Part shown: positions 2,103 to 53,510 of the stretch, one piece after another
Numbering within the stretch: position 1 is the stretch's first letter
How the letters are laid out: every line of letters begins with the position of its first letter
Assembly: GCF_030684315.1 (NCBI RefSeq)
Contig: NC_081396.1
Span: 8,795,628-8,859,627 of the forward strand
Direction: 5' to 3'
DNA: 64,000 bases
DNA from: Stegostoma tigrinum
Lineage: Eukaryota
Notes under the pieces: generated by a model
Databases searched by the model: none
Told to the model about the DNA's origin: nothing
The model's input: only the letters and a program-made list of their open reading frames with translations
Translations under genes and position numbers: made by a program

Positions 2103-2969
2103 TTACTTGTGAACTCGCTTATGTCTCAGCAATGTGGATAACTGAGTAAATGCCTTCCCATATATACAGCAAGTGAACAGCTTCTCACCAGTGTGAATTC
2201 TCTGGTGCACAGTCAGTTGAGATGTTTGTCTAAAGCCAGTCCCACAGTGAGGGCATCGGAACGGTCTTTCTCCAGTGTAAACACATTGATGGTTCATCAG
2301 TTCCCTGGAACTTTTATAGCATTTCTCAGAGTCTGGACATTTATAAGGTCTCTCATCAGTGTGAACGTGCTGGTGTTTAATCAAATGGAATGACTGAATG
2401 AATCCCTTCCCACACACGGAGCAGGCGAATGGCCTCTCCCCGATGTGAATTCGCTGGTGTATGATCAGTTGAGATGATCGCTTAAATACAGTCCCACAAT
2501 GAGCACATCTGAATGGCCTCTTGTCGGTGTGAGCACATTGATGGGATATCAGTTTCTCAGAACTTTTAAAGCAGGCCTCGCAATCAGGACATTTGAAAGG
2601 TCTCTCATTAGTGTGAGCCAGCTGGTGTTTCAGCAGATGGGCTACCTGGGCGTATTCCTTCCCACACTTGGAGCAGGTGAAAGGTCTTTCCCCAGTCTGA
2701 CTACGTCGATGAATTTCCACCTGAGACGGATAATTGAATCCCTTCCCACAGTCTCCGCATTTCCATGGTTTCTCCCCAGTGTGACCACGTTGGTGCCTTT
2801 CCAGGTCAGATGGGTAATTGAATCCTTTCCCACAGTTGCCACATTTCCAGGCCTTCTCCCTGATGTGACTGCGTTTGTGCTTTAGTAGGCCAGATGATCG
2901 GCTGAATCCTACTCCACACATACAGATGTATGGCTTCTCCCTATTATGAATGGTGCTTTCTCTTTCCAT
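2103..2969 (-). CDS. C2H2 zinc-finger protein A (288 aa; 10 finger units, 4 with lost or altered ligands); no effector domain
   Basis: Open ORF of tandem CxxC..HxxxH fingers with TGEKP/TDERP linkers; ATG in TTTGAACATGG context at 2969; splice acceptor TTTCACAG ~3078 upstream. Confidence 0.85.
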
Positions 2970-4199
2970 GTTCAAACCTGATGAAATTCAGGTTGTGACA
3001 GTTTGGGTACTGCCATCAGATTCTGAATTAATATTTAATTTAAAGTTTTCCAAATGCAAATTTTCCCCCTTTAACAACCTGTGAAATGGGGGAGAAAAGG
3101 AATAGTGAGAGAATCCACAAAATCATACAGGTCTCAAAATTAGCTGAATCAATCTAGTAATTTGTGCAAATAGCACTAGGAAAAATACATGCTCGTGAAA
3201 GTAACTGAGCTGTCACAACCACAACAACTGGTTCATTCATGTCCATCAGAGAAGGGAATCTGCCAGACAGACAAACACAAGACTCTAGCCCCTTTGGGAA
3301 GGTGTGAGGAGAAAGAGGGAGGAGAGCGGAAAATCACAAGATGTAGAAGAAAGATCTTTTTCATCTACACCTGAAACAGCATGCTGATTGGCTCTCCCAA
3401 ACATTCTACCTCCACTATATAGAACGACTAGGGTAGCTGGTGAATATTGACAACACTACCTCCAATTCCCCACCAAGTCATACACTGTCCTGACGCATGA
3501 AGCCTCACACTGGCTGTTAATGTGCACAAATCATATTGAAGGTGATACTGAGAGAGCACTTTGCAAGATATATGGGGATTTGGCCTTAGTAAAGAGAAGT
3601 GTTGAGTACCACTTCGCAGAATGGATGCTGACCCAAAACAAAATACTGCTTTTGATGTATCCATCAGGAGTAGTCAGGGGAGTGAAGTTGAGGGCTCGTG
3701 TGTCGCTGCTTAATGACTGAGACTCACTTTTTGCAACTTTGTATCCAAACTTAACCACTGGAGTTGAGGTTCTGTTCTGCACTTCCTGTAATACCAAGAG
3801 AACCTGCCCTTCCTCAGGTGGTTGCGCAGGATCGAACACTTTCTCCAGGTGTGGTCTAACTGTGATTTGAAATATCTTCACGTTTTTCTAGTCACATCCA
3901 TACCTGAAGTCTTTCCCAAAGGTAAGCCTTTTTCTTCTCACACCGTCAAGGTCGGCTGATAGCCAAGTCCTGAGGAGTCGAATAGCATTGTCGGAATTTG
4001 ACGTGGTGTTTCTTTTTGGGTTTCCTGGCTGCAAATCAGTTTCATTTAATACCCTCTGAAAAGGAGATGACAACAAATTAAAACATTCATTCTCGATCCA
4101 AGTTAGAAATCCAGAAGGCACTGGCACAAACCTTCTTCTCGGTTTGAGTTTGCTGTGTGCAAATCCTCTTCTAAACTCTTGACAAAGGAAGCCTGCAGA

Positions 4200-4900
4200 T
4201 GCGCCTTGCCCCCTACAAAAGTGGCGGCCGCGCATCCCTCTCCTGGGACGTTGCCCCCGAGAAACATGGTGGCGGCAACACGAGCCGGTCCGACCTGAGG
4301 CCTGCAACTCTTTTCCTCATTCATGCAAGAGCGGAGCCGACAGATTCTAACTCGGGTCTAATGACCTTCACTGGTTGCTTATAAGTCCTCCAGGTCTACA
4401 CGGATTTCATTGCTGTCAGCCTCTGTGATGTTTCTCCGACTCTGCCATCTTGCTCTGGAACGAGACTTCTGTTGCATCGTCACTGCGGCTGCGTGATGAA
4501 ATGTGTGTGACGTTCACAGTCATCACCTGCTCCGATTGGTTGTAGGACCTCTGCTTCCCAAACGGTCCTCCAGGTCCATGTCCGTCGATCCGGAGCTGCA
4601 GTCAACGCATGCGTAGTCGCCACCCTTTCCCCCCCACTACCCCAAACATAAGGTCGCCAATGGTCAGAAACAAAAAGGGAGACGAAGTGTTGGGAGAAAC
4701 TTGGTTTCTGGACCTACAGTCGGTGAGAAATCAGGCCGATCAGTTGGGGTGATGGATGGATGGGTAGACTGACTTCGGGAACACCTCAAACCCGGATAAG
4801 CGTCTTCATTTGCACCAAACAGTGGAGCTGCCAAATCCCTCCATTGACCAGTCCGAAGGAGACGATCGCCATCTTTGATATGGGCACTGGGGAAAGGGGT
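4200..4900. promoter_or_regulatory. CpG-rich bidirectional promoter between ZNF-A (-) and ZNF-B (+)
   Basis: CpG-rich; CCAAT (GATTGG ~4535), CRE-like GTGACG ~4508, NRF1-like ACGCATGCGT ~4605; YY1-type motifs oriented outward on both sides. Confidence 0.6.
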
Positions 4901-5320
4901 GACTGTGGCGTAGGGTGGCAACGAGTGGAATGAATGAGGAGCTTACTGCCCATTGTTCGGAATGGAGACAACTTGTCCATCAAGCTGCATCCGCCTTTCA
5001 CATTCAATATCTTATTGATTAGCGTTCGGGTTTGACAACCTTTGCCTTGGTGTTTTAACAAAACAAAGGACTGTAGATGTTCGAAGTTAGAAGTCTGAAA
5101 TAAAAGCAGAAAGTAAGCCAGCAGCTCTGACAGCGTCTGTAGCATTTGTTATGTTTGTTTCTGCTGTTGTGTTTTTGTGGGATCTCTCTTACTCGTTTCT
5201 GTTTTAAATCATTTCACAGGTATGCAAAACTGAAGAATTCTAGTTGTGAAGCTCAAAGCTAAAATCACAGCAGGATCTGAAGGAAATTTATTGTAATTTG
5301 AGTATCATTGGACTCTGAAC

Positions 5321-51049: not shown

Positions 51050-51720
51050 CAGGAACTTTTTGGGTGTCCTGCCGACCCAGGATCGTGGGGCGTTACCCCG
51101 AGCCTCCACGGTGCAAGAAGTCTCGGGTGTATCCGCCGTCTGGAATCCCATACCGTTTGGGGGTCTACGGAGGGTTGTTATGAAACCTCCCCGCCCAACC
51201 CAGCTTCCGGCTCCATCCCTTTCCTCCCTCTTGGTGAGATCTCCCTTGCTCCTCGCGGCCGCTTTCCTCCGGGTCCAGCGCCCGCTGCAAGTCACAACTA
51301 GGGACCCGCGTGATTGACGGCGGCTCCCAACCAACAGGAGGGAGTGGGCGGGCCTGGAGGGCCAGTCGGTAGCTAGTCCTCCAGCCAATAGAAATGAAGA
51401 TGGGTGGGACTAGGGTCTTGCCGCCCTGACTGATGTGTGGCCGAATGAAAGGAGAAAAGTAAAAGGGGAGGGTTACAGCCGATAGCGGGAGTGGAATTAA
51501 GCCACGTGCACAAACTGTTGGCCTCCAGGCCAGAATTAGAAACTCCTGGTCCTGCCTTTGCAGCAAACGGGAGAACAGCTGTGGGCTTCAGGCGACAAAG
51601 GGCCTGGGTTCCCGCCGCCATGTTTATTGGGGGCAATATTACATGGACGCAGACGTAGCCGCCATCTTTATTCGGAGCAAGATGCGGCAGGGCGCGTGCG
51701 CAATCTTTGGCAGTGGGTTC
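51050..51720. promoter_or_regulatory. CpG-island bidirectional promoter (ZNF-E minus; ZNF pseudogene F plus)
   Basis: CpG-rich; CCAAT+GC module 51325-51415; two GCCGCCAT.TTTATT.GG.GCAA composites 51614-51680. Confidence 0.7.
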
Positions 51721-52331
51721 GTAGAGTAAGATCAAACCAAGAGAAATGTTGTAGAATTTTATCTCGGATGACTGAAAGATTTTTTCTTTGGTAAACCTTT
51801 TTTTCTAGGAAATGGGAAGGATTGGTCGACGAGAAACTCAAACGAAACACATCATGCGTTTAGCTCTGGGCAATGCACCCAAGGATGAAAATCACTGTGT
51901 TGGCCTCAGACAGAGCACAGAGAGATTTAACCAAATAACACTTCAAATGCACTGCTGAAGTTTGAGGTTAGACTGCAAAAAAAATAGTCATTACAGCACA
52001 GACTAGGCTAACTGGTACATCAAGTCTCATCATTGTCCTTCTCTGAATGACATGAGTGAACCAGTTGGGTTTTTATGGCAAGTCAACAGCTTTCATGGTC
52101 ACTTTTCGCTAGTGCTGGCCCCACAAATTACCAGATTCATCCAATTCGATTTCACAACCAGCATTCGTGTTTCACGCATTTTCTCTCACTGCCTGTTTTT
52201 TTAGTTTTAAATCAGTTTCACAGGGTAGTAGAAAGGGAGGGTTTAAAGTTGTGAAGCTGATTCCAAACATCACTTTAGGATTTGATGGAATTGACCGACA
52301 TAATATAACTTGAATGTCATCAGATTTGAAC

Positions 52332-53510
52332 ATGGCAGGAAAAAGCACGGTTGGTAAACTCTGGAAATGTGGAGACTGCGGGGAGGGATTCAATTAGCCG
52401 TTTCAGGTGGAAATTCATCGACGCAGTCACAGTGGGGAAAGACCGTTCGGGCGCACCGAGTGTGGGAGAGGTAGCCCATATGCTGAAACATCAGCTGATT
52501 CACTCTGGCGAAAGACATCTTTCAAATGTTTTAGATAACAAAGTGTGTAGCTGGATGAACACAGCAGGCCAAGCAGCATCTCAGGAGCACAAAAGCTGAC
52601 GTTTCTGGCCTGGACCCTTCATCAGAGAGGGGGATGGGGAGAGGGTTCTGGAATAAATAGGGAGAGAGGGGGAGGCGGACCGAAGATGGAGAGCAGGGCT
52701 GAAGAGATTACAAGAGAGTTGCAGCGGGAGAGAGATTCCCTGAGGTTGGTCCGGAGGGAGGAGGGTAACTTCTTCAGGTTAGGCATCCCTGGAAGAGGCT
52801 TCGCAGTGAGGTTAAAATTGTATCAGTGATAATGGGAACTGCAGATTTTGGAGAATCCAAGATAACAAAGTGTGAAGCTGGATGAACACAGCAGGCCAAG
52901 CAGCATCTCAGGAGCGCAAAAGCTCATGTTTCGGGCCTAGACCTTTGGGAATTGCTGTAAAAGCTCTGAAAAACTAATGTCCCATCAGCGAGTACACTCT
53001 GGTGAGAGACCATTCAAATATTCTGACTGTGGGTCTGGGTTCAAGCGATCGTCTCAACTCACTGAGCACCAGCGAGTTCACAGTGGGGAGAAGCCGTTCA
53101 CCTGCTGTGAGTCTGGGAGCGAATTCACTTAGTCGTCCAGCCTGCTGAAACACCAGCGAGTTTACACTGGGGAAATTCTCTTCACCTGTTCCGAGTGTGG
53201 CAAAGGATTCACTAATTCATCCAACTTTTAACACACCAGCGGGCTCACACTGATGAGAGACCATTTAAATGCCCAGACTGTGGGAGGTGCTGTAAAAGTT
53301 CCAGGGAATTGATGTCCCAGCAACGTATTGACACTGATGAGAGACCGTTCAGGTGCTCGAACTGTGGGACTGGGTTCAGGCGATCATCTCAAATCACTGA
53401 ACACCAGCGAGTTCACACTGGACAAAAGGTGTGGTCACTCGCTCAGTGTGTGGGAAGGGATTTTGTCAGTCATCCAGGCTGCTGAGACACTTCCAAGTTC
53501 ATGAGGAATT
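52332..53510 (+). pseudogene. ZNF pseudogene F, with stops, frameshifts and a PLE insertion
   Basis: TTTGAACATGG start; WKCGDCGEGFN* stop; about 9 finger remnants; PLE at 52534-52943. Confidence 0.85.
52534..52943 (-). mobile_element. Non-autonomous internally deleted PLE, copy 1
   Basis: Terminus-ORF start-terminus arrangement; near-identical to 53571-54104. Confidence 0.85.

Follow-up and report, generated by a model that had tools for sequence, protein, structure and literature searches.

Expanded clusters of tandem C2H2 zinc-finger (ZNF) genes, pseudogenes among them, are described from sarcopterygians, where the proteins carry KRAB, and from cyprinids, where they carry FiNZ, in the sections of PMC10547256, PMC11603059 and PMC10380595 drawn on here. 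All fingers of such a gene sit on one exon, their specificity residues vary, and each gene has one constant N-terminal element, KRAB or FiNZ, which is a separate domain on upstream coding exons; TRIM28/TRIM33 binding, targeting of transposable elements and repression are features of these systems. How vertebrates without KRAB-ZNFs use large ZNF repertoires is an open question in the Discussion of PMC10547256, whose main text contains neither 'shark' nor 'chondrich', although its supplements may hold shark ZNF annotations. Here we describe ZNF genes of the shark Stegostoma tigrinum in a 64,000-nucleotide stretch (NCBI RefSeq assembly GCF_030684315.1, contig NC_081396.1, positions 8,795,628 to 8,859,627, forward strand), which is called the window and numbered from its first letter; the contig is 16 Mb and the genome 3.2 Gb. 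The ZNF genes of the window are five with an open frame (A, B, C, D and E) and two pseudogenes (14523-15298 and F). The element under study is a C2H2 finger with the motif W-K-C near the N-terminus (the W finger), and the finger preceding it is called finger 0. The W finger is a real, selected, lineage-wide lead finger, and its bearers are best explained as members of a finger-only C2H2 protein family that is old, expanded and common to sharks and skates.

The shark genes share the tandem, clustered, one-exon organization of KRAB- and FiNZ-ZNFs, with pseudogenes, variable specificity residues and one constant N-terminal element per gene, but their upstream exon is non-coding (gene A) and a C2H2 finger serves as the constant element. 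The five window frames have C-x2-C-x12-H-x3-H repeats and TGE[KR]P linkers, typical of tandem C2H2 (Kruppel-type) proteins, and above the cut-off only zinc-finger families match them in Pfam; as a preliminary description of the window had stated, no KRAB, SCAN or BTB domain was found in these five intact frames (BTB was not searched genome-wide). The human protein ZNF146/OZF ('only zinc fingers') is likewise finger-only and KRAB-less; according to the available part of PMC8896011 it binds LINE-1, its loss causes no detectable L1 derepression, and titles in the reference list of that article concern binding of its fingers to RAP1 and UBC9. ZNF146/OZF is a single conserved gene, unlike the expanding shark family. 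In Drosophila, the portion of bioRxiv 10.1101/2022.02.16.480628 used here describes an N-terminal C2H2 finger of CLAMP that binds MSL2 through helix positions +1, +5, +8 and +9, which lie on the helix face turned from the DNA. The W finger resembles it in being N-terminal, with atypical residues at the DNA-contact positions and a conserved opposite helix face (+1, +5 and +9 constrained). CLAMP, however, is one gene, as described there, with a finger apart from the array, basic residues and a measured partner, whereas the shark finger is family-wide, is joined to its array by a normal linker and has an acidic +5; no homology is claimed. The genome's own PRDM9 also has a one-exon tandem C2H2 array, but with KRAB and PR/SET exons. 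An origin of the W finger from PRDM9 was considered and rejected, since the PRDM9 array exon holds no W-class finger. The PRDM9 locus (L081, L140-L143; contig C53, 4.20-4.22 Mb) appears complete: it has KRAB and the PR/SET exons, and its finger array is homogenised. A literature search covering neither subscription journals nor supplements returned no paper describing the W finger or its family.

Six near-identical duplication copies (L001, L002 and L004-L007) were removed ahead of all counts, and L003 was retained. A tight DNA pattern of the W finger matches the genome exactly at 217 sites, against none for the reversed control; copies of a large duplication are counted in this figure, and fingers written with other codons escape it. 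The 396 matches of a looser pattern are inflated by a 23-bp satellite and by the same copies. In stretches picked without regard to the finger, it is present in 47 of 54 ZNF frames whose 5' end is closed. Of the remaining seven, one is gene C, two are downstream pieces of broken genes, two have Phe or Leu in the Trp position and two lack the finger altogether. In a tree built from the 921 fingers of 89 intact genes, 104 of 105 W fingers fall in one clade (support 0.954), and array slots 1-3 hold 104 of the 105 W-clade fingers, the sole internal one being in L085. All 71 W fingers in a placement test fall within the first three slots, compared with a mean of 21.2 and a maximum of 36 in 20,000 random placements. 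In a held-out set of 40 loci retrieved after the main analysis, 30 of 30 W fingers (29 intact genes) occupy slot 1 or 2, so the claimed position bias is borne out, and the W finger is common to at least 118 intact genes of one genome (89 in the tree set, 29 held out). Position alone shows no function, because the dispensable finger 0 shares the edge restriction.

The preliminary description called the finger invariant, which proved too strong: helix entropies at -2/-1/+3/+6 are 2.95/1.86/2.59/2.54 bits in W fingers (n=71) vs 2.44/2.89/3.29/3.26 bits in other fingers (n=652), and NYPS is only the commonest helix form, not a fixed one. Nor do the downstream fingers vary freely, as they group into stereotyped clades (e.g. 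of 81 and 56 members; overall omega 0.34-0.35) and have whole-finger omega (dN/dS) values of 0.34-0.40 in the comparison classes vs 0.27 in the W clade. An internal finger pair drawn from the clades of 81 and 56 recurs across and within many genes (L015, L017, L018, L020, and window genes A, B and C), and may read a common DNA element.

Omega was derived from tree-based counts on the W clade (105 fingers) and five comparison finger classes. A value of 0.04 from all pairs at 'signature' sites was partly circular and was replaced, hence the use of tree-based counts, leave-column-out classing and the held-out set. The Lys before Cys1 has an omega of 0.11 (0.45-0.90 in the comparison classes), helix +5 of 0.11-0.13 (0.55-0.76), helix +1 of 0.21 (0.20-0.44) and helix +9 of 0.20, whereas -2, +3 and +6 drift at 0.6-0.9 (+3 0.78, +6 0.88). 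Values for Lys, +1 and +5 lie under all 25 size-matched random sets, the three residues show 7 (Lys), 10 (Pro) and 8 (Glu) replacements on the tree of 105 fingers, and the class marks persist when they are left out of the class assignment. The held-out fingers carry Pro+1 in 26/30 and Glu+5 in 27/30, compared with 2/247 and 4/247 of other fingers. Broken or non-W copies retain Pro+1 and Glu+5 in 17/25 each, vs 94/104 and 96/104; Lys shows no comparable drop (23/25). Genes with two or three W-finger copies relax per copy (18/29 vs 63/76, p 0.036), and 12 of 13 multi-copy genes keep one intact copy. What is conserved is the helix face with Pro+1 and Glu+5 and not the Trp, absent at this position from skates; the Trp site has a low omega in every finger class (0.01-0.29). 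Generic fingers have an omega of about 1.0 at -1/+3/+6, which is no proof of positive selection, and the finger next to the W finger is variable (0.30 overall, 1.06 at -1/+3/+6). The W-finger helix has a charge of -0.82 vs +0.43 in other fingers; a base-reading residue stands at -1 in 5% of W fingers vs 78% of other fingers, such residues are also rare at +6, and +3 is Gln, Glu or Lys in most copies.

Recent duplication does not account for the W finger. Its synonymous sites are near saturation (pS 0.56, 89 genes), and identity at fourfold sites (0.576) is close to that of the non-coding leader (0.563), so the similarity is due neither to recent duplication nor to homogenisation of the DNA. 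The W finger heads arrays in proteins of Heptranchias, Heterodontus, Chiloscyllium, Cetorhinus and Pristiophorus, and the named proteins sharing it are all from sharks. Four skate proteins from two genera have a homologous first finger in which Trp is replaced by Tyr and Lys by Glu and which retains Pro+1, Glu+5 and the Arg pair; two of the four have a Trp at a different core position. None of 2578 fingers from 114 non-chondrichthyan proteins has Trp at the W-finger position, or Pro+1 and Glu+5 together, in a sample of tetrapods and one bichir, mostly among 120 matches listed of 7779, that took in no holocephalans, teleosts or lampreys. The family thus offers one short, testable candidate module, present in at least 118 intact genes of one genome and kept from sharks to skates, in which the residues singled out are Pro+1, Glu+5 and the Lys before Cys1 rather than Trp.

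Gene A has two exons, the first non-coding, and two contigs splice its CpG-island exon to the finger exon. These contigs come from runs of a related organism that are presumed to be RNA (four sets over window 1900-11400), and they join 3076 to 3902, giving canonical GT-AG ends after a 2-base shift. On the minus strand, the mapped part of the upstream exon (3904..4478) has no in-frame read into the fingers, the intron of the 5' untranslated region spans 3079..3903, and the non-coding exon-2 leader (2970..3078) has an in-frame TGA at 2988-2990, between the splice acceptor and the ATG. No splice joint of ZNF-B was seen among the contig alignments listed, in which contigs span 4718-5533 unspliced. 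The acceptor motif recurs 63-131 bases ahead of the ATG in 35 of the 41 genes of one subtype (six have no call). In these 35 genes the leader is open in the finger frame in two cases and in the other frames in five and one; leader lengths are not fixed modulo 3 and leader identity is neutral-like. RNAalifold gave no conserved RNA structure for 41 leaders (identity 0.563), a crude search on divergent sequences. Two further subtypes start closer to the W finger, with the ATG 4 codons ahead in 24/30 genes and 13 codons ahead in 17/17; their acceptor calls are heuristic and are not relied on. The acidic, 28-residue FiNZ sequence cannot fit in the 4 or 13 residues ahead of their first finger. Only 29 of 89 genes retain an intact finger 0, and everything upstream of the W finger looks dispensable and repeatedly lost.

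The genome's only KRAB match (58 candidates scored) is followed by PR/SET exons and belongs to PRDM9. SCAN, a domain derived from retrotransposon Gag, has at least 139 scattered matches (150 of 863 candidates scored), many with stops; none of the listed ones is on the window's contig, and three that were examined have no adjacent finger open reading frame. The search for an upstream effector exon came out negative on the stop in gene A, the 33 of 35 closed leaders and the PRDM9 identity of the KRAB match. SCAN-like frames also edge the ZNF cluster of contig C54 (L122 and L123, 14.01-14.05 Mb) with no adjoining finger frame, and are probably retrotransposon remnants.

The preliminary description proposed that the W finger interacts with protein rather than reading DNA. 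The constraint does favour a surface with a role other than base reading, but the conserved residues are Pro+1 and Glu+5, not the Trp on which that proposal centred. We consider the chances even that the lead finger is a built-in protein-docking module, a role favoured because constraint falls on the helix face used by CLAMP for MSL2. The +1/+5/+9 face would then bind one shared partner, and the variable downstream fingers would likely read DNA. A KRAB-like or repressor role is plausible, and only the analogy with KRAB- and FiNZ-ZNFs suggests that the partner would be a co-repressor and the targets transposons. The fuller proposal, KRAB-independent silencing in sharks and skates in which the Pro+1/Glu+5 face would recruit one co-repressor to a transposon read by the downstream fingers, is tentative and somewhat doubtful. 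If the lead finger does recruit a co-repressor, it would stand with KRAB and FiNZ as a solution reached independently and made from the finger fold.

Several observations weigh against docking on this face. The skate homologues lack both Trp and Lys, and the Trp or the whole finger is absent from open-frame genes (L047, L048, L052, L067 and window gene C). Finger 0 is equally edge-bound (29/31 in slot 1) and yet dispensable. The whole-finger omega of 0.27 is just slightly under that of other classes, and the joint value at -1/+3/+6 (0.67) is within their range of 0.56-1.01. Constraint at +1 overlaps one comparison class (0.20), so that +1 is weaker evidence, given the range there of 0.20-0.44, and a Pro at this position may only shape the helix start, in line with its established helix propensity. 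Positions -1 (Tyr/Ser, about 0.5) and +2 (Ser, 0.29) also lie under all 25 random sets. The decayed copy is the outer one in seven multi-copy genes and the inner in two, a pattern compatible with packing on the array, although these genes are not independent of one another. The splice evidence is confined to gene A and stems from contigs of a related organism that are only presumed to be RNA-derived. A structure prediction gives the W finger the beta-beta-alpha fold of an ordinary finger (mean pLDDT 85.4); the nearest folds in a fold search were C2H2 fingers, none at an E value of 0.001, and the ESM Atlas, PDB sequence and fold searches returned generic C2H2 proteins only. A predicted homodimer of two W fingers with zinc scored 0.13, with the alignment not used, and is evidence neither way.

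Outer-copy decay fits a lead finger that serves as a structural cap, packing on the next finger or stabilising the array at its N-terminal end, independently of any outside partner. The near absence of internal W fingers (1/105), the usual intactness of the array-adjacent copy, the displaced Trp in two of four skate first fingers and the ordinary predicted fold all agree with such a cap; we nevertheless judge it unlikely, as the next finger is variable and so presents no conserved counterpart surface, the tandem arrays sampled from other vertebrates (among the matches listed) contain no finger of this type, and the most constrained class marks are the charged Lys and Glu. The low omegas at -1 (0.51) and +2 could instead mark a nucleic-acid anchor shared by the family, in which Tyr/Ser-1 and Ser+2 would contact a common DNA or RNA feature such as a constant base, a methylated CpG or the backbone. 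In keeping with this, the ligands, the fold and the linker that joins the W finger to the next are canonical, and +3 is mostly Gln, Glu or Lys, but +3 and +6 drift, the helix carries a net negative charge, and base-reading residues are rare at -1 and +6, leaving an anchor quite improbable.

Inheritance without function would have the finger descend from a single ancestor, spared internal shuffling at the array edge, with the Trp trapped by its codon, single-base changes of which yield no other aromatic residue. Monophyly of the W fingers, the edge restriction of finger 0 and the low Trp-site omega in every class speak for it; inheritance and codon trapping probably do explain the Trp itself, which may be a trapped core residue. 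As an account of the whole finger it appears to us highly doubtful, because the easily changed Lys, Pro and Glu codons show so few replacements despite near-saturated synonymous sites, Pro and Glu are lost in broken copies, and finger 0, further out, decays while the W finger stays. A conventional effector domain spliced in from an upstream exon could draw on the two leaders open in frame, on database gene models that reach upstream, on the restriction of splice evidence to gene A and on the numerous SCAN-like matches. Against it stand the 33 closed leaders of unfixed length and neutral-like identity, the single KRAB match leading into the PR/SET exons of PRDM9, and SCAN matches that, where listed, lie off the window's contig, often with stops and, in the three examined, without a finger frame; such a hidden effector is very improbable indeed. 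Docking on the Pro+1/Glu+5 face is the reading that we retain.

In the window, the A/B and E/F pairs are head-to-head with a CpG island between the members of each pair, and the W-K-C finger was found in A (twice), B, D and E as first described. The ZNF-A coding sequence (2103..2969, minus strand, ATG 2969) encodes a finger 0 without the second Cys spacing, two W fingers (2849-2781 and 2765-2697, the latter with Gln replacing the last His) and the array. The island between A and B (4251..5000) has contig cover on both sides and is likely their shared promoter. ZNF-B (5321..6361, plus strand, ATG 5321) has 12 fingers, including a W-class finger with Cys instead of Trp that groups in the W clade (5444..5512) and a W finger (5528..5596); its leader after the predicted acceptor (AG ends 5219) spans 5220..5320 and has the in-frame stop already reported just upstream of the ATG, at 5294-5296. 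ZNF-C (17129..18496, minus strand) is an open frame with 13 intact fingers whose finger 0 and W finger (18373) are decayed, in agreement with the earlier account. ZNF-D (40578..41195, plus strand; predicted acceptor AG ends 40478, leader closed in frame) has a finger 0 (40617-40685) followed by a W finger (40701..40769). ZNF-E (49216..50241, minus strand) has an eroded finger 0 and a W finger at 50229-50161 with the helix NYSC, in which Pro+1 is changed to Ser and Glu+5 is kept; its start is likely 4 codons ahead of the W finger. The island between E and F (50751..51750) is likely their shared promoter.

Both pseudogenes had been credited with the same finger, but their copies are decayed. The pseudogene at 14523..15298 (minus strand, with stops) has a W finger at 15182-15114 in which Cys1 is gone and a stop is present, and that of ZNF-F (52332..53510, plus strand), at 52362-52430, has a stop at helix -1; the ZNF-F array is interrupted by repeat sequence of no assigned family. 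Another decayed ZNF remnant lies past pseudogene F (55900-56300, plus strand). CpG islands at 15751-16500, upstream of the 14523-15298 pseudogene, and at 24251-25250, about 6 kb upstream of gene C, are likely first exons.

Elsewhere in the genome, a block of at least 50 kb with one mostly shortened W-finger gene is present in many copies (L001-L007, L127-L138) on contigs C10, C12, C13, C474, C828 and others. Over most of its length, two copies share 99.8-100% identity, codons of the block account for about 55 of 76 matches of one genome pattern search, and the block also contains a seven-transmembrane (7TM)-receptor-like frame (L129). Variants of the 23-bp satellite that mimic W-finger codons (L116, L117, L111 and L112) occur on contigs C26 (57.05-57.11 Mb), C30 and C25. 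Database models of shark ZNF genes seem to merge neighbouring genes or unrelated exons (P0001, P0002, P0039, P0068 and P0089); in most merged arrays the W finger marks an array start, and it could be used as a gene-start marker for annotation.

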